Positions 6,249 through 43,316 are shown, counted from the stretch's first letter. The stretch is 64,000 nt of DNA from Spirochaetota bacterium (GCA_018240245.1 JAFEGD010000122.1:1901-65900), one strand, 5' to 3'. A program made the numbers and translations. Notes: generated by a model not told the origin, from the sequence alone.

Positions 6249-7292
6249 ATGAATCCCCTCGAAAAGCTTTATTCTTTCGGTAATCGCCTGCATCGGCGCA
6301 TGGTCAAAAGCGTGCGCATTCCCGGAACAAAAATTTTATCGATCGGTAACATCACGACCGGCGGCACGGGCAAGACGCCGGCGACGATTTATTTTAGTCG
6401 GCTGCTGCGCGCCGAGTTTCCGAACCAGGCGGTGCTGAGTCGCGGCTATGGCGGCAAGCTCGCACACGAAACCAATCTCTTATCAGACGGTTATCGTGTG
6501 CTTATGTCGAGCGGCGATGCGGGCGACGAGCCATATCTTATGGCAGTCAATCTGCCGGGCGTGCGCGTTGCCGTCGGGCGCAACCGCTTGAAGAACGCGC
6601 AGCGTTTGCTCGCAGAATTTTCGACAGGGCTTTTCTTATTAGACGACGGTTTTCAGCACTATCGCATCGCGCGCGACGCCGATGTGGTGCTTATCGACGC
6701 GACGAACCCTTTTGGAAGCGGCAAACTCTTGCCGCAGGGAATATTGCGCGAGCCGATCGAAAATTTAGCGCGTGCCTCGGTGATTGTTCTGACTAAAACC
6801 GATCTATTAGAACGCGCGGCGCTCGACGAGCTGAGAGAACGTGTGCGCCAAATTTCGGGTCTGTCGCATATTTTTCTGAGTCGACACCGCGCCGACGGCC
6901 TCGTGAAAATACCGCACGAATACACGCCGCAATACGTTGCTAAGGTGCAGAGCACGGCGCTCTTGAAACATGAAACGGTCTGGGCATTGTCGGCGATTGC
7001 GAACGGGCGCGCGTTTAGCGAAATGCTGCGCCGTGCGGGGGCAGAAAAAGTCGAGACAATCAGCTTCCGCGATCATCACGATTTTTCCGAGCGCGATATA
7101 CGCATGGTGTTAGAGCGCGTTAAGCCGTACGACATCGTCGTCACAACCGAAAAAGACTATGTGCGCCTAAGAAAGCATGCGGATGCACTCAAGTCGCTCA
7201 AGCAATTTTTCTATTTGAAAATTGAGTTCGAGGTTTTAGAAAATGAAATTCTCTTGAAAGAGGGGCTCAAGGCGCGACTCATGCATCATTGA
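6249..7292 (+). CDS. lpxK: Tetraacyldisaccharide 4'-kinase
   Basis: LpxK P-loop GNITTGGTGKTP followed by LSRGYGG. Length ~347 aa. Confidence 0.9.
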   Translation: MNPLEKLYSFGNRLHRRMVKSVRIPGTKILSIGNITTGGTGKTPATIYFSRLLRAEFPNQAVLSRGYGGKLAHETNLLSDGYRVLMSSGDAGDEPYLMAVNLPGVRVAVGRNRLKNAQRLLAEFSTGLFLLDDGFQHYRIARDADVVLIDATNPFGSGKLLPQGILREPIENLARASVIVLTKTDLLERAALDELRERVRQISGLSHIFLSRHRADGLVKIPHEYTPQYVAKVQSTALLKHETVWALSAIANGRAFSEMLRRAGAEKVETISFRDHHDFSERDIRMVLERVKPYDIVVTTEKDYVRLRKHADALKSLKQFFYLKIEFEVLENEILLKEGLKARLMHH

Positions 7293-8066
7293 CTATGGCT
7301 GCGCCCCCGCCGGTGCAAGCGCCGTCTTCTGAACGTCGCTACCCAACGAGTAATCGAATTGGTGTTTCTTGACGAACGTTTTTTCACCGCGCACCGTCTC
7401 GTGATATAAAATTTCAATAAGCTGCTTATTCGCGTTATAATGGTACTCGGCGTAGCGCGCACCGGTGAGCCCGCTTTTGACGCGCGTGGTCAGGAGACCG
7501 TTTTCAAATATCGATTCGACGCGCGAGGTTAGTTCGCCCTTGGCGTTGTAAATATTTTGCAGAACCCCTTTGGGTGTCGGCTGCAACCGAAACGATTCGG
7601 TCATCTTTTTTTCGACGATGCGTTTGCCGGCGACAAGCTTGCCCGCCTTGTCGTAGACGTAGCGCCATTCGATCTTGGCGTTGCCGCGCACGTCGTGAAT
7701 CAGCGTCTTATCGAGTCGTTCTTTCTTATATATAAGTTCGATGTCTTCGGCGAGATTGTCGGCGGCGTCGAAGAGTTGTTCGCGCACAAGGCGATTATTA
7801 TCGTATGCGTAGAGTGTGTGCCCCGTGGCAATTTTTTTTGTCGCGGCGAGGCGAAAATATTGCGCGCGCACGAGTAAATTATCTTTGTAATAAAATTCGG
7901 CGGTTTCGGTCGCGTTACCGGCGGTGACGGTTTCAGTCGCCGGCCGCGTAGCAAACGTATTGAGCTTTTTATACGCTTCGAGTGGGTCAAAAACTTCGGG
8001 ACCCGCCATCAACGCTGGGGTTAATCCCACGCACAAAAAAAGCAAATTAGTCGGTAAAAGCCTCAT
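7293..8066 (-). CDS. Secreted MORN-variant/YwqK-like repeat protein
   Basis: Repeated Y(Y/A)YD.N.L(V)....F-type units (FYYKDNLLVRAQYF, YAYDNNRLVREQLF, YVYDKAGKLVAGKRI, YHYNANKQLIEILY). A signal peptide begins at the internal Met (MRLLPTNLLFLCVGLTPALMAG), although the ORF extends to 8138. Confidence 0.6.
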   Translation of the reverse strand: MRLLPTNLLFLCVGLTPALMAGPEVFDPLEAYKKLNTFATRPATETVTAGNATETAEFYYKDNLLVRAQYFRLAATKKIATGHTLYAYDNNRLVREQLFDAADNLAEDIELIYKKERLDKTLIHDVRGNAKIEWRYVYDKAGKLVAGKRIVEKKMTESFRLQPTPKGVLQNIYNAKGELTSRVESIFENGLLTTRVKSGLTGARYAEYHYNANKQLIEILYHETVRGEKTFVKKHQFDYSLGSDVQKTALAPAGAQP

Positions 8067-32601: not shown

Positions 32602-33789
32602 CTAAACAAACAATGATTTGAATTCGTCGAATACAATCGCCGCGTCGCGCGGGCCGGGTGCCGCTTCGGGGTGGTACTGCACGCTCAAAATTTTATACTT
32701 GTCGCCGAGGATTCTGAAACCTTCGGCGCTCAAATCGTTCGCATTGATTTCAAAGTTCGCCGCCGGAATTGCATTCTTCAATGCATCTTCGGCGACAGCG
32801 AAGCCGTGGTTCTGCGATGTGATAATCACTTGCTTGCGATAATCCGCTTTGACGGGTTGATTGCCGCCATGGTGGCCGAATTTTAGTTTGTACGTTTGCG
32901 CTCCTAAGGCGAGTGCGAGCATCTGGTGCCCTAAGCAAATGCCCAAGCAGGGTTTGCCGGTGTCGATCAATTGCCGAATATTTTGAACGCCGCGTTCGAC
33001 GACTGCCGGGTCGCCGGGGCCGTTACTAAAGAAGAAGCCGGCGTAGTCGCTTGCATGAAATGACTGTTGATCGGCGAGAGCGATATCGCCGGCAAATACT
33101 TGCGGATTGAACCCTGCGGCGATGAGTTCGCGCAGAATGTTATATTTAATGCCGAAGTCGAGCACGGCGATTGGCTTCAGCTTGGTTTGATCGATTTTTT
33201 TTGTAGCGAAATAATGCGCGACGAAGCGATTGGCCGCGACGCCGTCGAAATCGGCAACGAGGTTGAGGCCTTCCATGACTGGGCGCGCGGTAACTTTTGC
33301 GGCAAGCGCTTCGGCTTCTGCCTGATTTTTGGGAGCGGCAAAGATGCCCGCAGTCTGTGCTCCGCCGTCGCGAATCTTGCGCACGACCGCGCGGGTATCG
33401 ATATCGCTGATTCCCGTGACACCTTGCTCGGATAGGAAAGTCGCGACCGGTTTATTGCTACGAAAATTACTCGGTATTTCGCACAGGTCGCGTACGACGA
33501 CACCCGACAGCCACGATTTTATCGACTCGTTGTCGTCGTCGTTCACGCCATAATTGCCGAACGAAGGGTACGTAAAGCAAACGATTTGGCCTAAATAGCT
33601 GGGGTCGGTGAGTACTTCTTGGTAGCCCGACATTGCGGTCTGAAAAACCGCTTCGCCGAAGACACCGTCGGGCGCGGCTTTTGCGCCAAAGAGGCGACCG
33701 TGAAACAATGTGCCGTCCGAAAAAGCGAGAACCCCTTTATCGGCTGCGGTTTGCATGCCGACATCTTCAAGACGCGCGACACGCGGCAA
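32602..33789 (-). CDS. carA: Carbamoyl-phosphate synthase small (glutamine amidotransferase) subunit
   Basis: The GATase triad context PCLGICLGHQMLALALG, plus SQNHGFAV and VQYHPEAAPGP. An alternative start is the Met at 33756. Confidence 0.92.
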   Translation of the reverse strand: MPRVARLEDVGMQTAADKGVLAFSDGTLFHGRLFGAKAAPDGVFGEAVFQTAMSGYQEVLTDPSYLGQIVCFTYPSFGNYGVNDDDNESIKSWLSGVVVRDLCEIPSNFRSNKPVATFLSEQGVTGISDIDTRAVVRKIRDGGAQTAGIFAAPKNQAEAEALAAKVTARPVMEGLNLVADFDGVAANRFVAHYFATKKIDQTKLKPIAVLDFGIKYNILRELIAAGFNPQVFAGDIALADQQSFHASDYAGFFFSNGPGDPAVVERGVQNIRQLIDTGKPCLGICLGHQMLALALGAQTYKLKFGHHGGNQPVKADYRKQVIITSQNHGFAVAEDALKNAIPAANFEINANDLSAEGFRILGDKYKILSVQYHPEAAPGPRDAAIVFDEFKSLFV

Positions 33790-33841: not shown

Positions 33842-35197
33842 TTAATACAACTTCAATTCGCGCGCGAGTTCGAAAATATTACCGACTTCTTTTTGCCGCT
33901 GAATCAGCGCGTCTTCGGATAAAATTTTACGCACCGCCGCTTCGGGCAAATTTTGCATGCGGTGAAAATTCTCGCGATAAAATCGCAACGGCAGTTTGCG
34001 GCAAAAAATATGGCTTTGAAAATAAAAGACTTGGTGTGCGATCAGAAATCGCATCGTATCGTAATCGTCGACGGCTTCGGCGGTGATAATCGCCTCGCGG
34101 TTGTCGGCAAGGCGAATACAGTAGTCGATAAACGCGAGGTTGTCGAGAAATTTTGTCTGGTCTTCTTCGGGCTTGAACTTGAAGCTGATCGGGTCGAGTT
34201 TGAACTCTTTAATCATCTCGCCGAGATCGAGAATCACTTGATGGCTCTGGCTTTTGACGCCGAAGTCGTCGGCGGCAAAAGAAATACCAAATTGAAAAAA
34301 ATAATGGCAGACGTCTTTGAGTTTAATCTCTTTTTCTTCGTACGGCTTCTCGACAAGCTCTAAACGCACATTTTGTGGATTCAGTTTTTGCCGTGTGAGT
34401 AGCTCGTTAAAACGAAATACTTTCTCGGCCGACGGAAAAGTGTCGATGAGCGTCTGCGGCGAGACGTTAAACTTCAAGAGGCCGGGCGCTTCGTGGCAGG
34501 CAGCGACAATTTTTTCTAAAATTAGAAGCTCGATACGGTTGGTATCTTGGTCGTTCGGTATGTCGCGCAAGAGCTCGGCATAGCTTGCATAGAGTTCGCC
34601 GCCGACGAATACCTCGCCGCCCTTGACCGAATACGTTTCTTTTTTTGCATCGAAATGAATAATCGGTTGAATTACCGCATTCGCCTCGACGTTGGCGAAA
34701 TAGTCGTTCGCGCGGTTGAGGTATGTCCAGCTCCAGCGGACAAGATTATCTTTGAGATTCTTATGCGCCGCCTGCACTAATTCGTCGAAAATTTCTTGCG
34801 CATCGGAAATATAGTTACATTGAGTGCGACCGATGCCGAAGTCGAAGCTCCCATCGCCGTCTTTCGGTGCCTCGCCGTGGTATTTGCCCATCGCGCCGTC
34901 GATATTCGGCAAGAAGCCCGGCGCATCGTCTGCGGGTACAATGCCGACGTAAAACCGCTGCTCGTCGCCGAGCACGTACATCTGTATCGACTGGTTGGTC
35001 TCGGTGTTGACGCGGCGAACAAAATCGGGAATTTTTTTAAGGAACTCGTCGATGCGCATGCCCTTGAGATTTTCGACGAGCATGAGAAAGAGTGGCTTAC
35101 CGCGATTGCGATCGATGAACGTCGCACGAAAATTTTTTTCGGCATCGGCGAAACCGAAATTCTCGACAGTCTTTTGTAGAATCGAACGCAATTGCAC
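33842..35197 (-). CDS. Protein with a divergent C-terminal EAL-type (c-di-GMP phosphodiesterase-like) domain and an unknown N-terminal domain
   Basis: Ordered EAL-domain landmarks: IQPIIHF...GGEVFVG (EVF in place of EAL), RLELVE, FAADDFGVKSQS, IKEFKLDP, ITAEAVDD, YFQSHIF. Confidence 0.6.
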   Translation of the reverse strand: MQLRSILQKTVENFGFADAEKNFRATFIDRNRGKPLFLMLVENLKGMRIDEFLKKIPDFVRRVNTETNQSIQMYVLGDEQRFYVGIVPADDAPGFLPNIDGAMGKYHGEAPKDGDGSFDFGIGRTQCNYISDAQEIFDELVQAAHKNLKDNLVRWSWTYLNRANDYFANVEANAVIQPIIHFDAKKETYSVKGGEVFVGGELYASYAELLRDIPNDQDTNRIELLILEKIVAACHEAPGLLKFNVSPQTLIDTFPSAEKVFRFNELLTRQKLNPQNVRLELVEKPYEEKEIKLKDVCHYFFQFGISFAADDFGVKSQSHQVILDLGEMIKEFKLDPISFKFKPEEDQTKFLDNLAFIDYCIRLADNREAIITAEAVDDYDTMRFLIAHQVFYFQSHIFCRKLPLRFYRENFHRMQNLPEAAVRKILSEDALIQRQKEVGNIFELARELKLY

Positions 35198-35372: not shown

Positions 35373-36380
35373 TTAGTTATTACTCAGTTGCACAACCTTC
35401 GTATCGAGCCCCAATTTTCGTCGCGCGTCTTGAATCGCGCGCGCGCGCGAATAGGGCGCCTTTTCGGCTGCGGGTAGCGTATCAAAATTGGCGATGAGAC
35501 AGAGTTGCGGCGCACGCAAGATTTCGGGCATCAGTCGCGCCGCCAGCGCCATTTCGCGCGCGGCATACGCGCGTGCCGCATCGCTAAAAAGAGGGCGCCC
35601 TTGCGCATCTTTCATGCCGAGCAGACGATAGTTCTCGGCGACGACCTTGAGATCGAGCAAGCCAATCGCCGAAAACGATTGGAGCGATTTGCGCGTTATG
35701 AGCTCCAACGAATTGACGCCCCGCAAATCGGGGGGATTGATAACGGCGACGCAATTTTCTTTGAGTTCGATTCTTTGGCCGAATCGATACGCGCGCATCA
35801 AATCGTAAGTAGAAACTCCGCCGAGCGTCTGTTGGCGCTTGAGGTATTGTAATGGGCTTGCGAGCGAAGTTGCGATCGCGAAAAAAAAGACGGTCGCGAC
35901 GACAGTGAGAATGGTTTTTGTTAGCAGCGCATAGTTTTGCCGCCACGGAAATAGTCGCCGCAGCAAACGTACTGCGACGATCAGTAAAAGCCACGCGCTC
36001 GACCACACGAGTATCGGTTCGCCCCAAAAGGGCACTGCGGCGGCGAAGGCGATAAACACGAGTTGCGTCACCAGGCGCGCGCGCGTTAAGAGCGCCGCTT
36101 GCAATAGCAGAATCAAACCCCACCAAACGCGGCTGCCGATTCCGCCGATCACCGCGAGCATAAAGTTTGCCGCAAAGCCGAGCGGTTTTTCAAACAGCGC
36201 CGCGTCGCGATATTGGTAGAAGAGTAAAGTATCGAGGCCGACGCGCCGCTCTGCCGCGAGCGAAAGCGTATTTTCGAGCGGCGTGCCGGTAATAAGCAGC
36301 CAGAGCGCGAGGAGGGCAAAAACGGCAACGACGACAACCGCGCGCCCTTGTCTTATTTTCAGTTCGCTGTTCTGTATCAT
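35373..36380 (-). CDS. Polytopic membrane protein (about 5-6 TM) with a ~150-aa C-terminal soluble domain; third gene of the MNIO operon
   Basis: Hydrophobic segments AVVVVAVFALLALWLLITG, FAANFMLAVIGGIG, VWWGLILLLQAALL, LVFIAFAAAVPFWG, ILVWSSAWLLLIVAV and ILTVVATVFFFAIATSLA. The start overlaps the upstream stop by 4 nt. Confidence 0.65.
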   Translation of the reverse strand: MIQNSELKIRQGRAVVVVAVFALLALWLLITGTPLENTLSLAAERRVGLDTLLFYQYRDAALFEKPLGFAANFMLAVIGGIGSRVWWGLILLLQAALLTRARLVTQLVFIAFAAAVPFWGEPILVWSSAWLLLIVAVRLLRRLFPWRQNYALLTKTILTVVATVFFFAIATSLASPLQYLKRQQTLGGVSTYDLMRAYRFGQRIELKENCVAVINPPDLRGVNSLELITRKSLQSFSAIGLLDLKVVAENYRLLGMKDAQGRPLFSDAARAYAAREMALAARLMPEILRAPQLCLIANFDTLPAAEKAPYSRARAIQDARRKLGLDTKVVQLSNN

Positions 36381-37945
36381 GCGAGAATGCCTGGGAGCGC
36401 TAAAATACGAAAAACTTTTTTCACCGCTGCCGCCGTGATTTTTTTCTGTACTTCGGCGGTGGTAATGTAATCGGCGAGTAGGCGCGGCTTTGCGAGCCCC
36501 GCGATAAAATCGAATTCGGCGCGGCTCAAGATTTTGGCTTCAACTGCAAACGTGCGACGGTAGAGCAAAACGTATTGCGGTGTTTGCGTTGGCCTTTTGA
36601 CGAGCCTTAAACTTGCGGCGGCTGTATTGTGGAACAACGTAGTGGCGCTCGACCACAAATAGGCGTTCTTGGAGAGGCGAACTTTACCCGCAAACAAATC
36701 TTGCGGGCTTTGGTCGAGCGCTTGGCAATAAAGGTTATAGCGAGCAAGTTCGAGCAGCGCCAGATCGGCAAGGTAGGGTCGATGCGGAAAGTGCTTCTGC
36801 AAGAAACGCGGTAAATCTTCGCCATAGCGCCCTAAGTCGGCGTGCGTCGGTGTGTGCGCGGCGATATATTTTTGCGCTAGTCGCAAAAAGGCTTTGTCGC
36901 CTAAGCTTGCTTTCACGAGAAAATATTTTTCTTCAAGCGCCTGCGTGTGGCGCAGCGTATGCGCGGTGCGGTAGACTTTCTGCGCGCCCGTGGGCGTAAG
37001 ACTACCCGCCGCGCGCTCGCCGCGCTCGGCTTTGCGCGAATAGATATATTTTTGCCAGCGCGTTTCTTCTTTTAGACGCTTTCGGGTGGCAGCGCCACCT
37101 GAATGCATTTTATTGGCATAGCGCGCAGGCATCGGTTTCGGTGTTAGCGACTGCGCGCGCAAAATTTCGCGTTCGAGCACTCGAAAAGAAGGAATCGCCG
37201 CGTCGCGCTCGAGACTAACGGGCTTGTCGCCAATGTGGTAGCGCGCCTCGCGGTAAAGTTGTAGCACAGGAGACGAAATTTTCGCCGCGTGCGTATCGAA
37301 GAGATGCGTTGCTAAATCGGTGAAGCCCGCCAAATGATAGCCGGCGACATGTGCGGGATTAATCCCCCGGATAAAACGGCGCGCGTTGTAGCGAAAGTTC
37401 GTCGCGTTGACGAAGACGTTGTTGATATCGAGCAGAATCTTGCAGCCCGATTTTTCGGCGATAAAATTCAGAAACTCGACTTCGCTCATTTCGTTGTGCG
37501 GGTACTCCATATACGCCGAAATATTTTCGAAGACGAGCGTGCGCTTGAGGTACGCTTGCGCGGCATCGATATTTTGCACGGCACGCTTGGCCATCGCATG
37601 CGTCAGCGGCAGCGGCAACAGCTCGTGGTACTCTTCGCGGCCAAAACGCGAAAAGCAAAAATGATCGGAGATTTGAAACGGTTCGATGCGTTCGGCGAGA
37701 CCGCGAATTTTTTTTAGTAGTTCGCGGCGCACGCCGTCGACGCTGCCGATTGAGAGCGCGACGCCGTGCAGCGCCACGGGATATTTTTTGCGAATTTCAG
37801 TCAGTACGTAGAGCGGCGCGCCGGTGGTATCGATAAAGTTTTCGGTGATCGCCTCAAACCAACCGATGTCGGTTTGGGGCTCTGTCAGCAAAAAGTTAAA
37901 ATGCTCGCCTCTGAGGCCGAGCCCGACTAGATTTTTCGGGGTCAC
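36377..37945 (-). CDS. Fusion protein: DUF692 multinuclear non-heme iron oxidase (MNIO; MbnB/BufB-like) + DUF2063 (BufC/MbnC-like partner) domain
   Basis: N-terminal ~280 aa carry the DUF692 landmarks GLGLRGEHF, WFEAITENF, VALHGVALSIGS, QISDHFCF, LVFENISAYM, ILLDINNVFVNA and GYHLAGF. The C-terminal ~230 aa follow the DUF2063 pattern (...LGDKAFLRLAQKYIAAHTPTHADLGRYGEDLPRFL...PYLADLALLELARY). The GTG start overlaps the precursor stop (GTGA). Confidence 0.85.
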   Translation of the reverse strand: MTPKNLVGLGLRGEHFNFLLTEPQTDIGWFEAITENFIDTTGAPLYVLTEIRKKYPVALHGVALSIGSVDGVRRELLKKIRGLAERIEPFQISDHFCFSRFGREEYHELLPLPLTHAMAKRAVQNIDAAQAYLKRTLVFENISAYMEYPHNEMSEVEFLNFIAEKSGCKILLDINNVFVNATNFRYNARRFIRGINPAHVAGYHLAGFTDLATHLFDTHAAKISSPVLQLYREARYHIGDKPVSLERDAAIPSFRVLEREILRAQSLTPKPMPARYANKMHSGGAATRKRLKEETRWQKYIYSRKAERGERAAGSLTPTGAQKVYRTAHTLRHTQALEEKYFLVKASLGDKAFLRLAQKYIAAHTPTHADLGRYGEDLPRFLQKHFPHRPYLADLALLELARYNLYCQALDQSPQDLFAGKVRLSKNAYLWSSATTLFHNTAAASLRLVKRPTQTPQYVLLYRRTFAVEAKILSRAEFDFIAGLAKPRLLADYITTAEVQKKITAAAVKKVFRILALPGILA

Positions 37946-38205
37946 ATCTCCATCGTCATCGCTTGAAATTTACCTTTCTTCGCTTTGCACTCGGCGGCAG
38001 TCATTTTTTTCCAACCTTGGCCTTTGCATGCATTCATGCCCGCACAACTATGCGCTTTGCTGCCGCAATCGCCTTGGCCTTTGCAGCCGTTGATGCCGTG
38101 GCATTCGCCTTTTTTCGCTTTGCTCTTCGCTTCTTTTGCGCCGACACCGCCGGCAAGTGCGATACCCGCGAGCGCTGCAGTCATGAGTAGACTTGTTTTT
38201 TTCAT
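37942..38205 (-). CDS. Bufferin-like RiPP precursor peptide (Sec signal peptide + Lys-rich 6-Cys core)
   Basis: MKKTSLLMTAALAGIALAGGVGA|KEAKSK... gives a signal peptide with an AxA-like site. The core has six Cys in the duplicated module C-H-G-I-N-G-C-K-G-Q-G / C-A-G-M-N-A-C-K-G-Q-G. An SD-like AAGGGGA lies ~9 nt upstream. It sits directly 5' of the MNIO gene. Confidence 0.8.
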   Translation of the reverse strand: MKKTSLLMTAALAGIALAGGVGAKEAKSKAKKGECHGINGCKGQGDCGSKAHSCAGMNACKGQGWKKMTAAECKAKKGKFQAMTMEM

Positions 38206-38323
38206 TGCTGAGTTTCCCCTTTATGTCGTTAATGAACTAATCATGTACGCAGGCGCGATGTGGTGGAAAGCGTAAATCTGGTGGTCGGCATGTCGAAAGA
38301 ATACTCTATAGCAATATCTATCT

Positions 38324-39619
38324 ATGCTTAACAAGAATATACCGACCCTTGCATTGCTACTTGCGGCTACAGCGTGGCTTGCCAGTTGCGCTTCGATCGA
38401 TCTTTTGCCAAAGATTATCGCTCCCCCTGTAGCTAAAGAGCAAATAAAACCCAAACCCGCAAAGAAAGTGGCGGCGATGCAGACAACCCTACCGGGGATT
38501 GAAACCGTACTGGCGCATCCGATTGTGGCGAAAGATAAAGATCGCTTTTTTGATTGCGTCGAAAATTCGGCGGCGACGCGCCCCATCCATTTCCCAATTC
38601 CCGAATTTCAATTTTTTGATGCCGACGAGCATACCAAGCGCCGTTTCTATCTTACCGAAGAGAACGGTTGGCCGTTTGTCGTCGGTTACCACGCGACCGA
38701 GCGCGCAATGCCCAACGGCACTTGGGTCGTGGCGATGCGCGGTGAGGCGTCGGCGTTTCATAAGTCGGCGCTGTCGTCGCCCTTAATCTCTTTGATGGAG
38801 ACTCTACCCGGCGCTGCGCTCATCACGGTCGACGAATATATCTATAACGGCAAAAACGGCGAACACAAGCGGTTGAATCCGATTTGCCATCGCAGCGTTT
38901 ATGGCTCGCGCTACATCGGCCCTGAAACCCCCGGCTTTGAAAACGGGGGAGCGACCCGCGTGCTACGAAAAATATTACCGATGAAGAACCCCGTTGTGTT
39001 CGTTTCGTATAGTAACGCAACGTCGCCGCGCGGCGAATTTGTCGCGCGTAAGTTACGCGGCAGAGAAAAAATCGATTACCGTGCGTTTCGCGACCCGAAA
39101 GAATTTTTGACAGCCTACATCTTGAAAACAAGTTTCAACGAGAACGTTTACGCCGGTATCAAAGGTTTTGTCGATATCGAAGGTAACTTTGAATATACCA
39201 AATCGTTTTGGGATCTCATGGCGTTCATCAAATTAGAAATTGAGCGCAACCCTAAAAAATTTTTTTACAGCGCCGTGCGTGTCGAGAAGCCCGACGCTTT
39301 TCCAGTGCAGACGACGATGATTCGGTTATTTAGCCTCAAGGGTGTCGAAGGCAACGATGGCGTTATTCGTTACAAAAATCCTGCGGGCAATATCGTGATC
39401 GATGTCTTAACGAACCCGTACCAGCCGCATTATGCGGGCGTGGGCGGCGATTTGCGCCATACGACACAATTTACTCCGGCAGATGCAAAAACTGTTCACC
39501 GCGCATACGTTTCTCACATTGGCATGCCCGCATGGACGCTCAAGCGCATCGCGAGCACAACGAAATTTTTTGATAAGGAGATGCAGCGGTACCCACAGAA
39601 AGCAATGCTTAATCCATGA
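38324..39619 (+). CDS. Predicted lipoprotein, unknown function (431 aa)
   Basis: Lipobox TAWLASCAS. Divergently transcribed from the MNIO operon. No recognised domain. Confidence 0.6.
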   Translation: MLNKNIPTLALLLAATAWLASCASIDLLPKIIAPPVAKEQIKPKPAKKVAAMQTTLPGIETVLAHPIVAKDKDRFFDCVENSAATRPIHFPIPEFQFFDADEHTKRRFYLTEENGWPFVVGYHATERAMPNGTWVVAMRGEASAFHKSALSSPLISLMETLPGAALITVDEYIYNGKNGEHKRLNPICHRSVYGSRYIGPETPGFENGGATRVLRKILPMKNPVVFVSYSNATSPRGEFVARKLRGREKIDYRAFRDPKEFLTAYILKTSFNENVYAGIKGFVDIEGNFEYTKSFWDLMAFIKLEIERNPKKFFYSAVRVEKPDAFPVQTTMIRLFSLKGVEGNDGVIRYKNPAGNIVIDVLTNPYQPHYAGVGGDLRHTTQFTPADAKTVHRAYVSHIGMPAWTLKRIASTTKFFDKEMQRYPQKAMLNP

Positions 39620-39640
39620 AAATAATCCGCCCGATAAGCA

Positions 39641-40792
39641 ATGAAGATTCGCCCTAGTTTTTCTGTTTTTTTTGCGGTTACAACTTTATTTTTCACACTT
39701 TCTTGTTCGAGCAGCAATATTCTCAGGGTAACGCCCGAGCATCAAGAATATCTGCGGCATGTCGACGACGACGTCTTTCGCGACGGCGGCATCGAACGGC
39801 TCTTCACGAACCTAGGCACCGAAGGCGATATAATTTGTAACATGATTTTGGGGTATGCTCCATACGATGCGGCGACTGCGCAATCGTTTTCAACGACGCT
39901 CAATTTTCAGAAAACGCCGAAACAAAAATGGTACGATAACGTTATTCCCTCGCTCATCGCGGGTTGCTTTAATTTTTACAAGATGAACGACCGCGGAGTG
40001 CATACGGTGTTCGCGCTTTTAGAGAAACTATATCCCGAACCCAAAGACTGCTATACGGTTGGGTTTTCGCAATATTATTTAATGCGTCAGTTTATGCGTT
40101 GCGACCGTTTGACTGCGATCGACGCCGATTGGCGTATTCTCAAAGCGCATTACGATTTTCATCAGCAGATTCGTAAAAAAGATCTGGGTGCTGATGCGCT
40201 TTCGCTATTACGCAATATCGAACTTGCGTGGGTCGCGCACTTCGATGTGAGACCAGAACCGCGCGAGAGTGTCCGCAACGAAGTCAATTTCTGTATGCAA
40301 ACCGAGCGTGCGTATTGCTTGCGCGCCTTCGACGCCTTTGTCGCTTTGCCCGAATTGCCCAAGAGCGAACTATTGCTCGGCTTTATTCACGATGCGGAGT
40401 TCAAACCGCGTAGAAATAATATGAGCGTGGTTTTTGCGAGTAATGCGCTCGATGTCGATTACACTAGCAAAGAAAAATTCGACAAAATGCTTGCGGCAAT
40501 GAAAAACTATTTGCCCGAAGGCAAGCGCGTTGCCGTGATTTATCAAGCGGGCGACAGCGAAGATATTGCGGCGTATGAAATGCTCAAAGGCGAGGGCGAC
40601 ACATTCGAGGTGTCTATTCGTTGCCGAGACAATATTCGCTGGTCCGATCGTTATATTAAGCTTATGCGCGACAAACCGATTGTTACATGGTTCGATAAAC
40701 TCTTAGATTATCGCTCGCTGAAGGGAGTGCCGCGCTGTCATGCGGGCGGTACGCGCCGCTACGTCACCGACCCGTCGAAGAAAAAAATATAA
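39641..40792 (+). CDS. Predicted lipoprotein, unknown function (383 aa)
   Basis: Lipobox FFTLSCSSS. Lies 21 nt after the preceding lipoprotein gene. It has segments that look alignable with the C-terminal half of the 41568-43316 product. Confidence 0.6.
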   Translation: MKIRPSFSVFFAVTTLFFTLSCSSSNILRVTPEHQEYLRHVDDDVFRDGGIERLFTNLGTEGDIICNMILGYAPYDAATAQSFSTTLNFQKTPKQKWYDNVIPSLIAGCFNFYKMNDRGVHTVFALLEKLYPEPKDCYTVGFSQYYLMRQFMRCDRLTAIDADWRILKAHYDFHQQIRKKDLGADALSLLRNIELAWVAHFDVRPEPRESVRNEVNFCMQTERAYCLRAFDAFVALPELPKSELLLGFIHDAEFKPRRNNMSVVFASNALDVDYTSKEKFDKMLAAMKNYLPEGKRVAVIYQAGDSEDIAAYEMLKGEGDTFEVSIRCRDNIRWSDRYIKLMRDKPIVTWFDKLLDYRSLKGVPRCHAGGTRRYVTDPSKKKI

Positions 40793-41565
40793 TCGCTCAG
40801 CCAGCGACCTTGGACAAAATCGGTTTCGTGCCCGGCGAAAACGATGGTATCTTTATCGAGCGACCGTAGAAATGCGCGACTATTTTCTACAGAAAAAGCG
40901 GCGGCGCGCGGTAACGGTATTTTCTTTTGGCAACTTTCGCGAAAGTAACACTCGTCGCCGGTGAAAAGAAACGTGCCGCTTATGCCTCTGTAATACACAA
41001 CTTGCGAACCCGAGGTATGCCCGGCAACGAGCTCTACGGAGAAATTTGTATGTAACGGCGTATTGCCGTCGATAATTTTCAAGTGTCTTCGCGATTGCAA
41101 AGACATCAACTTGGACTTGAGAACTTTATCTTGTAGCGATGCAACTTCGCGCTGCTGTACAACAACAGTGGCATTGGGGAATTTATCGACATCGAGCGCG
41201 TGGTCGAAATGCGCATGCGTCAACACGATATATTTTATAGCTTGAGGGGTTAATCCTAAATCACCGAGCAAGCTTTCTACCGAACGAAAATTGCGCAGCG
41301 AAAAGCGCCGGCGGAGCGCAGCGTCGGAAAAGCCACAGTCGACGAGCGTATTATCTCCCGAACTGTCGCGCACGAGGTAAGCGAGCCAGTTCAGTTTTAC
41401 CGTGCCGCTTTTTTGAAGACCGTTGACGAGCTGCGCCGGGTAATCGCTCACCGCATAGCGGAGCGCATAGATTTGCGGCGCTAAGACGGCATTCTTGTTT
41501 TGCGTATTATGGCAGCCGAGCGCGACGCACCAGAATATGCACGCGAGAAAAAAGCATGCGCGCAC
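40759..41565 (-). CDS. Metallo-beta-lactamase-fold hydrolase lipoprotein (lactonase-like)
   Basis: Lipobox CVALGCHN. MBL motif VLTHAHFDHALD plus LVDCGFSD and a C-terminal GHT/GHE histidine. Confidence 0.8.
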   Translation of the reverse strand: MRACFFLACIFWCVALGCHNTQNKNAVLAPQIYALRYAVSDYPAQLVNGLQKSGTVKLNWLAYLVRDSSGDNTLVDCGFSDAALRRRFSLRNFRSVESLLGDLGLTPQAIKYIVLTHAHFDHALDVDKFPNATVVVQQREVASLQDKVLKSKLMSLQSRRHLKIIDGNTPLHTNFSVELVAGHTSGSQVVYYRGISGTFLFTGDECYFRESCQKKIPLPRAAAFSVENSRAFLRSLDKDTIVFAGHETDFVQGRWLSDYIFFFDGSVT

Positions 41566-41567
41566 CG

Positions 41568-43316
41568 CTATCGATCTTGCTCGAGAATACCTTTCGGTAT
41601 CGCGGCGGGAATCTCAATCGTGCTGAAGTCGGCCCGCTCTTTCGAGACGACTCGATACATCTTGAAGTAATCCATAAAATCGTAGTGCGGTAATAAGAGT
41701 TTCTTCTGATAATTATACGCGCCGTGGACTACATAATGCCAGAAGCCCTTGAAGCCTTTACGCCACGCCGGGTGCCACGGGTATTCGTGTACCGAACGAA
41801 ATGTAATCGAAGCTTCGTCGAACGGCAGCGAGAGAACATTACGTTTGTAGTTCGCATCGTTCGTGCTGTAGTCCCAGAACTCTTCGGCGTTCGAGGGATA
41901 ATAAACGCGAATCGGTACGCCGAGCGCTTTCGCCGCTTTGCCGATCGAGCGCATCGATTTATCTTTCAACATATCGCCGGGCACAATTGCGATGCGATCT
42001 TGCGTATAGAGCAAACGAATATAACGATAGTTCTCTGCGTGGCGCAACCACCCGAAATCGCCTTGCTTTGCGTCGGCGCGCGCGCTCATGCGATAGTGCT
42101 TGAGCAAGTTCGGCGCATTGTTGCGATAAACTTGTTGTATGAAATCGAGATCGCTGCGCTCGCTATAATACTTGGCGAGAATGTCGAGCGCTGCTTTAGA
42201 ATTTCTCTTCTCGAACTTGGCGAGAAAATCGGCGACGCTCGGCGATTCGACGACGAACGCGCGAATAATTCTGTGCAGCGCGTTGATATTTACGTCGAAA
42301 TCGAATAGCCAAACGAAGCGGCTCTTCGCCAGAGCGATATACGAATAGTTCGCGTCGGCGGCGACACCCGCATAACCGCCGCCGAGGTTGCGAATATACG
42401 GCGCGAAAAAATAATTCTGCGACTCGTTCGGCGTAAAATACGTCACCGGGTCTTTGCAGTGTGCGGGCGACGTGTACTTCGCTTTGCAGATCGGTTTATT
42501 GAGCGTGTCGGTCGCTTCGAGGTTCTGCAAGAGCTCGCGCTCTTTTGCCGAAAGCGGGCCGGGGTCGCCGAGCGGTGCCGGTGGGTTTTTCAGCATCCAT
42601 GGCGGGGCTTGCGTGGGGGGATTATTATCGGAAGCGCAGCGGAACGCTAATTGTGTTTTTGTCGCGTACGCAATCGCTGCGGTCTCGTTCGTGTTGGGGT
42701 TAAAAGTCTTTTTTAATTTCAAAGATTTGTCGCAGGGGAAAACTCCACTACAAATACCCAGCGGGTTTGCGGGTTCGCAAATATTTTTATTTTTTACCGT
42801 GCACGACGCGCCCGGCGAAAGCTGCCAACTGTTCGACCATTCGGCAAATGCGCTTTTTTGGAAATCGGTATGCGCAGCGCCCGCTTTCAGTTCGGCGAGC
42901 GTCGGTAGCCGCCCCCCCGCCCACGCGCAATAGCGGAGCGTAGCTTCGATATTGAGTCCCAGCGCCGGCGATGCTGCATTTGCGCGACTATCGCCCGGTT
43001 TGTAATAACTATTCGCATCGCATTGCAGGTCGGCAACGCAGCGCGCGTAGTCGGCATTGGTCACGACCGCCGCTTCGATGAGAACGTTATTCGACACGGC
43101 AGGCGCAGCGTCGACGGCGAGTTCGCGATCAATCGCCTTCGCCTCGAGACAAAGATGGCGCGCATCGATATTTTTACAGTCGTTTAGATCGCTGCTAGTG
43201 AATGAAAAATCATTTGCCGCCGACGCGGATGTCGTTTTAACCTTAGCCGAACTACAATTGGCTAAAAAAATCGCCAGCGGTATTATAAAGAAGCTGCGCA
43301 GCGTGAGCGATTGCAT
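41568..43316 (-). CDS. Lipoprotein with an N-terminal FGE/SUMF1-like (sulfatase-modifying-factor-type) segment and an unknown C-terminal domain
   Basis: Lipobox IFLANCSS. The segment VTNADYARCVADLQCD...YCAWAGGRLPTLAEL resembles the FGE-sulfatase domain core (A..YC.W.GgRLPTeaEW). The stop lies 2 nt before the MBL gene start. Confidence 0.55.
   Translation of the reverse strand: MQSLTLRSFFIIPLAIFLANCSSAKVKTTSASAANDFSFTSSDLNDCKNIDARHLCLEAKAIDRELAVDAAPAVSNNVLIEAAVVTNADYARCVADLQCDANSYYKPGDSRANAASPALGLNIEATLRYCAWAGGRLPTLAELKAGAAHTDFQKSAFAEWSNSWQLSPGASCTVKNKNICEPANPLGICSGVFPCDKSLKLKKTFNPNTNETAAIAYATKTQLAFRCASDNNPPTQAPPWMLKNPPAPLGDPGPLSAKERELLQNLEATDTLNKPICKAKYTSPAHCKDPVTYFTPNESQNYFFAPYIRNLGGGYAGVAADANYSYIALAKSRFVWLFDFDVNINALHRIIRAFVVESPSVADFLAKFEKRNSKAALDILAKYYSERSDLDFIQQVYRNNAPNLLKHYRMSARADAKQGDFGWLRHAENYRYIRLLYTQDRIAIVPGDMLKDKSMRSIGKAAKALGVPIRVYYPSNAEEFWDYSTNDANYKRNVLSLPFDEASITFRSVHEYPWHPAWRKGFKGFWHYVVHGAYNYQKKLLLPHYDFMDYFKMYRVVSKERADFSTIEIPAAIPKGILEQDR

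Follow-up and report, generated by a model that had tools for sequence, protein, structure and literature searches.

Operon layout, precursor and fused maturase

The minus strand of the 64,000-nucleotide stretch analysed here (the window; Spirochaetota bacterium, GCA_018240245.1, JAFEGD010000122.1:1901-65900) carries at 35373-38205 three open reading frames (ORFs): bufA2, a small precursor gene (87 aa, ATG start); bufBC, a fused maturase gene (522 aa, GTG start); and memX, a gene for an unannotated membrane protein (335 aa, ATG start) (Table 1). An earlier note on this DNA, made from the sequence alone, described the three as chained by 4-nt start/stop overlaps (37942-37945 and 36377-36380), and both overlaps were confirmed at the junction sequences. 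The first junction reads ...ATGTGAC..., where the GTG start of bufBC overlaps the TGA stop of bufA2 by 4 nt; the second reads ...GCATGATAC..., where the ATG start of memX overlaps the TGA stop of bufBC, again by 4 nt. Because of this overlap the translation of memX is expected to be coupled to that of bufBC, and the three genes together are predicted to be translationally coupled. A Shine-Dalgarno sequence, AGGGG, lies at 38216-38220, 10 nt 5' of the bufA2 ATG. The note's view of the genome as spirochaete-like also holds, the nearest relatives of named source being Turneriella and Spirochaetota metagenome-assembled genomes (MAGs).

Table 1. Features of the operon in window coordinates, followed by the gene layouts in which memX accompanies bufA2. 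L numbers denote related loci. MNIO, multinuclear non-heme iron oxidase.
Feature	Position or loci	Strand	Basis
bufA2, bufferin-2 precursor, 87 aa	37942..38205	-	NCBIfam NF050166 match; conserved Cys; Lys-rich core
bufBC, MNIO maturase and DUF2063-type partner in one 522-aa polypeptide	36377..37945	-	Pfam PF05114 and PF09836, NCBIfam BufB
MNIO (DUF692) catalytic domain, residues 7-267	37145..37927	-	PF05114 full profile; invariant candidate iron ligands
BufC-equivalent partner region, residues 312-521	36383..37012	-	PF09836 and alignment to stand-alone Leptospira BufC
memX, 335-aa inner-membrane protein	35373..36380	-	Unannotated lineage-specific family; ATG overlaps bufBC stop by 4 nt
memX membrane region, residues 14-174	35859..36341	-	AlphaFold2 helices, hydropathy, alignment, charge per loop
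memX C-terminal alpha/beta domain, residues 176-335	35376..35855	-	Alignment A3, AlphaFold2 model
Intergenic region upstream of the operon	38206..38323	-	Shared with divergent gene at 38324; operon promoter expected here
Layout a: bufA2-bufBC-memX	window, L001, L003 (same contig as L004)
Layout b: bufA2-bufBC-sigma-p75-memX	L002 (same contig as L008), L005, L009, L016, L017, L018, L020 (partial)
Layout c: bufA2-sigma-p75-memX, no maturase	L006, L021
Layout d: bufA2-memX, no maturase	L007

The precursor matches the NCBIfam BufA2 model NF050166 above its cut-off (72.3 bits against 60, residues 9-80 covered), a search against bufferin-type precursor models being one of the checks that the note had proposed. 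It contains exactly six Cys (C35, C41, C47, C54, C60 and C73); all 11 homologues compared, which come from Spirochaetota, Omnitrophica and a metagenome, keep these six, H52 and a repeated G-x-N-x-C-K-G-x-G motif without change. The Sec signal peptide and Lys-rich six-Cys core that had been read in this ORF are both recognizable, the former by inspection: MKK is followed by a hydrophobic stretch of 13-18 residues and a candidate cleavage site, ALA/GG or VGA/KE, and the signal peptide spans about residues 1-18 or 1-23. The protein is 54% identical to the Leptospira BufA2 from a classical A-B-C cluster, and its gene is directly adjoined, through the 4-nt overlap, by one that carries both the MNIO and the DUF2063 domain.

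Substitution counts and ratios of non-synonymous to synonymous substitution rates (dN/dS) were obtained for the window against its closest relative, the metagenome contig L001. The two bufA2 genes differ by 19 synonymous and 0 non-synonymous substitutions, the operon genes next to them having 80-84% protein identity. Since the 87-aa protein is 100% identical despite 19 synonymous differences in the DNA, there is little doubt that the small ORF is a real gene. The dN/dS values are 0.13 for bufBC (0.07 for its MNIO half) and 0.17 for memX (0.12 for its C-terminal domain), and purifying selection is strong on all three operon genes.

BufBC matches almost the whole of the DUF692 profile PF05114 (282.7 bits, cut-off 25, profile positions 2-261 of 263) and, nearer its C-terminus, PF09836 (DUF2063; 49.3 bits, gathering cut-off 27.2, residues 317-382). 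This is in line with the note, which had seen DUF692 landmarks in the N-terminal half and a DUF2063-like C-terminal half; every motif that it quoted is present (LHGVALSIGS, ISDH, FENIS, LLDINN and YHLAG). Of the NCBIfam MNIO subfamily models, BufB gives the highest score (284.9 bits), ahead of HvfB (206.6), ApyH (68.6) and MbnB (51.9), and with a lead of ∼80 bits the enzyme half would be best described as BufB-like. In 24 fused homologues, residues H60, D94, H95, E140, D173, N175/N176, H204, D217, H219 and E246 never vary. For most of them (H60, D94/H95, E140, D173/N176, H204, D217/H219 and E246), the solved MbnB structure has the same residue at the aligned position, and we take these positions, going by the published MbnB structures, to be those of the iron ligands. 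The profile of these 24 sequences (A6) matches 3bww among the PDB sequences (E = 4e-63), in which the first six residue groups, H60 to D217/H219, are also identical in the alignment. The GTG start of bufBC is backed by homology, as the Pfam match takes in the sequence from residue 7 on and an 84%-identical homologue is also 522 aa long. A public gene call of 504 aa was rejected: it starts 18 codons too late (window 37892-37945) and loses GLGLR, with which the MNIO domain has its conserved beginning.

The partner half extends well past the Pfam match. In an alignment with the stand-alone BufC of Leptospira (261 aa), residues 312-521 pair with residues 28-247 (E = 4e-17), along the whole of that protein, so the fusion holds a complete partner that reaches beyond the N-terminal DUF2063 domain. 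Within this region, the C-terminal half of the Leptospira protein, a domain that is of RRE type in stand-alone partners, is matched by residues 383-521.

The fusion is found in other genomes as well. About 58 of the 120 best protein clusters from the bufBC search carry both Pfam domains, and these include Turneriella, other Spirochaetota, Omnitrophica and Terriglobales. An Omnitrophica contig and a metagenome contig (L012 and L013) have a precursor gene ahead of the fused one, its product scoring above the BufA2 cut-off; next to the fused gene of a contig from another phylum (L014), gene calling gave no precursor. A direct scan of the genome collection with the single fusion protein returned no locus. 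A YceI-family gene precedes the fused-maturase Buf2 clusters of the two former contigs (L012:3056-3661, L013:2925-3605) and is absent from the spirochaete loci. In Table S4 of the 2025 survey of bufferins (PMC12452194), the entry for Turneriella parva gives a single Buf2 precursor and a single accession that is tallied under both MNIO and DUF2063, which is the same fused architecture. The main text of the survey discusses several fusions, the MNIO-DUF2063 fusion not being among them, and natural BufB-BufC fusions did not come up in the main text of any of the papers searched for them. Judged by these matches, the joining of enzyme and partner recurs across phyla and is neither rare nor peculiar to the window locus. 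An engineered fusion of HvfB and HvfC, joined in this order, shows higher activity than the two proteins apart (bioRxiv 10.64898/2026.07.17.739211). As that artificial fusion solves the weak-complex problem hampering work on these enzymes, the natural BufB-BufC fusions are plausible as reagents, and they offer ready-made candidates for structural and mechanistic studies.

The memX family and its linkage to bufA2

The third gene had been noted as encoding a 335-aa polytopic membrane protein, and AlphaFold2 and hydropathy agree in predicting five transmembrane helices. In the model, built from a 22-sequence alignment (pLDDT 93.4, pTM 0.88), these helices are accompanied by a structured 36-aa loop, which carries the conserved motif ENTLxLAA...YRFR, and by a C-terminal alpha/beta domain of ∼160 aa; an earlier model from 3 sequences had reached a pLDDT of 41 and was unusable. 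Short members of the family are without helices 3 and 4, exactly two helices, by which the topology is kept. The C-terminal domain has two invariant Cys (C210 and C294) and a set of invariant charged or polar residues (D218, E226, D243, K245, N250, E276, E306, R312, R314 and R320). By hydropathy and charge, the short, K/R-rich loops 2 and 4 favour an N-in orientation with the C-terminal domain in the periplasm, and we consider a periplasmic location of this large domain the more likely one.

An exhaustive profile search of 1.84 billion representative proteins yielded a family of 22 representatives, where word-indexed searches had returned only 3-4 proteins. An alignment-based genome scan placed memX in seven Turneriella or Spirochaetota MAG loci; its eighth match, L011, is weak and partial and comes from an unclassified MAG. 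Neither the window protein nor 15 family members matched Pfam or NCBIfam, the window protein and the 22-sequence profile had no match among PDB sequences, and with the pLDDT-93 model Foldseek returned no PDB or BFVD entry at E <= 0.001. A Foldseek likeness to the folds of nucleoside 2-deoxyribosyltransferase and of DUF7768 was weak (E > 0.1) and was not used. Two candidate identities were rejected. As a divergent DoxX the protein would be expected to match PF07681, and no such match was found for the window protein at E <= 10 or for 15 family members at E <= 1, which agrees with the note's remark that the locus has no obvious stand-alone doxX gene. As an NrsF (PF06532) it likewise lacks a Pfam match, and hhalign against the Leptospira NrsF gave a probability of 0.1%. 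The memX family is the only new element of the operon.

The operon genes were mapped onto 20 further distinct loci besides the window. Every intact memX copy with enough upstream sequence (13/13) is housed in a bufA2 operon, and the layouts are collected in Table 1. The operon is without a maturase gene in three of these loci (L006:2928-4998, L021:213-2083 and L007:7719-8810), where the precursors still score above the BufA2 cut-off. From L006 the gene is cleanly absent, because the flanking genes are those of L002 (KdpD/KdpE downstream). In the three loci either the maturase is encoded elsewhere in the genome or the peptide works unmodified. The sole memX copy without a nearby bufA2 is a second copy in Turneriella sp. 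Bin_83R (L010:7896-8524); its N-terminal membrane region is missing, a frameshift lies near its C-terminus, and it is probably a decaying duplicate. By gene neighbourhood, memX is firmly linked to bufA2 in the Turneriella/Spirochaetota lineage.

Two further genes recur in these operons, one for a sigma factor of the extracytoplasmic function (ECF) type and one for a 75-aa protein, p75. A contiguous sigma-p75-memX block is present in L002 (sigma and p75 at 6503-7310), L005, L006, L009, L016, L017, L018, L020, L021 and L022. The p75 protein is soluble, has no membrane segment and keeps a ZAS-type motif, C3...H29-x3-C33-x2-C36, in 4 loci; it matches the NCBIfam anti-sigma model NF052368 with 38.9 bits (E = 5.5e-10), below the cut-off of 50, and gave no match to Pfam zf-HC2. 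No homologue of the sigma factor or of p75 was found within the 64-kb window. The 2025 survey reports sigma/anti-sigma genes only in Buf1 clusters (PMC12452194). In Leptospira meyeri, genes for a sigma factor and NrsF stand next to the Buf2 cluster (L015:3416-4566).

Class of the operon and possible roles of memX

The description of bufferins dates from 2024 (PMC11626156) and a survey of them from 2025 (PMC12452194); the peptides are Sec-exported and copper-induced (PMC11626156). For Caulobacter Buf2 a shift of -18 Da was reported, made up of four central Cys at -4 Da each and a disulphide of the outer pair, and the -4 Da modification was identified as 5-thiooxazole by NMR, on Buf1 (PMC11626156). 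In Caulobacter the buf2 operon consists of bufA2-bufB2-bufC2 and lacks doxX, and Buf1 can do without DoxX (PMC11626156). By analogy with this system, we consider it very probable that the window locus is a Buf2-type bufferin operon of a Turneriella-like spirochaete, in which the maturase modifies the precursor, the peptide is exported through Sec and the product buffers periplasmic copper. The matches to BufA2, PF05114 and PF09836, all above their cut-offs, bear out the membership in the bufferin-like class of MNIO-modified ribosomal peptides that the earlier note had proposed. Two of its statements call for amendment. It was right that enzyme and partner are fused and that doxX is absent; neither makes the layout unusual, since the fusion recurs and Caulobacter buf2 also lacks doxX. 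Nor is the product chemistry wholly unknown, as the note had it, for the analogy with Caulobacter Buf2 suggests four thiooxazoles and an outer disulphide. In its core the finding is already known: this is bufferin 2, a class with dedicated NCBIfam models, extended to one more spirochaete lineage.

On the Caulobacter analogy, the partner half of BufBC would bind the precursor core in the cytoplasm, and the iron domain would use O2 to convert the central C41, C47, C54 and C60 to 5-thiooxazoles, the natural B-to-C fusion possibly enforcing a 1:1 complex of enzyme and partner. The modified precursor would then leave via Sec and have its signal peptide cut off, C35 and C73 would form a disulphide, and the mature bufferin, of ∼64-69 aa, would chelate copper in the periplasm. 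Our guess for memX is an inner-membrane effector that works with the exported bufferin, outside the modification chemistry. Its task might be to dock the peptide, to pass on metal, or to maintain the thiols and the disulphide in the right redox state, and it would fill the slot held by DoxX in many other bufferin clusters. We slightly prefer such an effector, acting on or with the exported peptide, to a regulatory role, because memX persists without sigma and p75 as well as without the maturase, and because its large domain is more likely periplasmic.

Several observations weigh against this picture. As regards the class, the score of BufBC for the BufB equivalog NF050167 (284.9 bits) narrowly misses the cut-off of 310. 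We infer the RRE fold of its C-terminal 140 aa from alignment only, and the RRE structure NGO1945/3dee was not reached by the PDB-sequence profile search with the 24 fused homologues. A sigma-70-type consensus was looked for in the region upstream of the operon and none was found; the upstream regions of homologous loci were too diverged to align and gave no shared motif. As regards memX, the segment after helix 5 is also K/R-rich and the C-terminal domain is basic overall, which makes the topology ambiguous. Moreover, memX directly follows genes for the ECF sigma factor and the ZAS anti-sigma factor in 10 of the 14 loci with visible upstream sequence (the 13 intact copies and L022, whose contig is too short to reach bufA2), an arrangement that fits a regulatory role at least as well as that of an effector.

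The regulatory alternative is that memX is the membrane or sensor part of a module of ECF sigma factor, ZAS-type p75 and memX, similar to CnrH-CnrY-CnrX or to the SigF-NrsF pair that controls bufferins in Caulobacter; the sigma and p75 genes of the window would then have been lost from the operon or have moved elsewhere in the genome. The contiguity of the three genes in 10 loci, the overlap of the p75 and memX genes in L002, and the C-x25-H-x3-C-x2-C arrangement of p75 with its sub-threshold match to an anti-sigma family (E = 5.5e-10) all speak for such a module. Lacking a membrane segment, p75 could sense the periplasm only through a partner in the membrane, and in Leptospira, a neighbouring lineage, the sigma and NrsF genes beside Buf2 make the slot look regulatory. 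However, memX is intact in the window, L001, L003 and L007, where sigma and p75 genes do not adjoin it, and it is under purifying selection between the first two of these; no homologue of either partner occurs anywhere in the window. The protein is also unlike NrsF, with the hhalign probability given above, and if its C-terminal domain is periplasmic it would show the cytoplasm only ∼28 residues to which p75 could bind. We hold this alternative as a tentative one, possible but not the likelier. A bolder proposal joins both roles: memX, the ECF sigma factor and p75 would form an undescribed cross-envelope signalling or handling device dedicated to a ribosomal metallophore. We regard this as doubtful; if true, the alpha/beta domain of memX with its Cys pair would bind, or act chemically on, the exported bufferin, the metal loading or redox state of the peptide could be read and fed back to transcription, and the bufferin would be a sensed ligand beyond a passive copper buffer.

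The maturase-less operons bear on a different alternative, in which the BufA2-like protein is mainly an unmodified, Cys/His-rich, metallothionein-like metal binder of the periplasm, with memX as its real partner and the maturase as an optional addition. The precursors of L006, L021 and L007 remain above the BufA2 cut-off, the clean absence of the gene from L006 points the same way, and many precursors lie far from any MNIO gene (PMC12452194). On the other hand, the window maturase is intact and translationally coupled, its MNIO half has a dN/dS of 0.07, and the genomes of L006, L021 and L007 may still encode a maturase elsewhere; on balance we find this account unlikely. To the idea that memX is an unrelated passenger sharing the transcript we give very little credence. 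It is true that no annotation or structural relative ties the protein to metal or peptide biology, but memX accompanies bufA2 in four gene layouts and 13 loci, its overlap with bufBC implies translational coupling, and the copy away from bufA2 has decayed. The memX family offers a lead on the post-export fate of bufferins, and it may bear as well on the regulation of these clusters outside Proteobacteria.

Flanking genes and comparison with known systems

Directly downstream of the operon, on the same strand, a gene at 33842-35197 encodes a protein of 451 aa, whose C-terminal half carries an EAL (cyclic-di-GMP phosphodiesterase) domain and whose N-terminal half has no family match. The protein is 97% identical in L001 (dN/dS 0.03). 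In the 175-bp gap that separates it from memX no terminator consensus was found. It is followed by carA at 32602-33789.

Divergent from the operon lies a block of genes (38324-43316) that occurs in the same order in L002, L009, L016 and L018. It begins with two lipoprotein-like proteins without a family match, of 431 aa (38324-39619) and 383 aa (39641-40792), and continues with a 268-aa protein (40759-41565) whose counterparts in related loci carry the metallo-beta-lactamase fold (Lactamase_B). The last ORF, of 582 aa (41568-43316), has a matching gene in L002, L016 and L018; its homologues are marked FGE-sulfatase and DUF7790 in precomputed Pfam annotation, the window protein itself scoring below the cut-off against LIC_10091. 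FGE-type enzymes are copper enzymes, and for this reason a functional link of the block to the bufferin operon is conceivable; the shared gene order may simply reflect relatedness.

Of the known systems, the buf2 operon of Caulobacter vibrioides (bufferin 2, formerly BUF_6/12Cys; PMC11626156, PMC12452194) is a close counterpart. Both operons lack doxX and run in the order A-B-C; in both, the six-Cys precursor carries a Sec signal and satisfies the BufA2 model, the MNIO falls nearest to BufB, and the partner is of DUF2063 type. The Caulobacter operon differs in that B and C are separate proteins, whereas in the window they form one polypeptide; the window also adds the coupled gene for an unannotated membrane protein, and its host phylum is Spirochaetota. 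While the Caulobacter regulator is SigF/NrsF, most of the loci related to the window instead encode an ECF sigma factor and a small ZAS protein within the operon. The nearest unfused relative examined is the Buf2 cluster of Leptospira meyeri (L015), with separate genes for the MNIO (287 aa) and the DUF2063 protein (261 aa). Besides the precursor identity of 54% its MNIO domain is 41% identical to that of the window and its partner aligns over the full length; an ECF sigma factor and NrsF are encoded divergently from bufA2, and memX is absent.

As for the fusion itself, the engineered HvfB-HvfC of Haemophilus influenzae joins the C-terminus of the MNIO to the N-terminus of the partner, as the window protein does, and is a functional mimic of the 1:1 complex. 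It is artificial and acts on oxazolin (HvfA), while the window fusion occurs naturally, with a linker of ∼20-45 residues between its halves, and goes with a BufA2 precursor. Many bufferin clusters have DoxX (BufD) as the product of their fourth core gene; like memX, it sits in the inner membrane and its gene closes the operon. The two share no sequence similarity, and memX, with five helices and a 160-aa alpha/beta domain, differs from the small helix bundle of DoxX. In the CnrYXH and NccYXH systems, an ECF sigma factor, a small anti-sigma factor and a further membrane protein are encoded next to metal-stress genes. In gene make-up the sigma-p75-memX loci resemble these systems as well as SigF-NrsF; the comparison for sequence kinship to NrsF was negative, and the window has memX without the sigma factor and p75.

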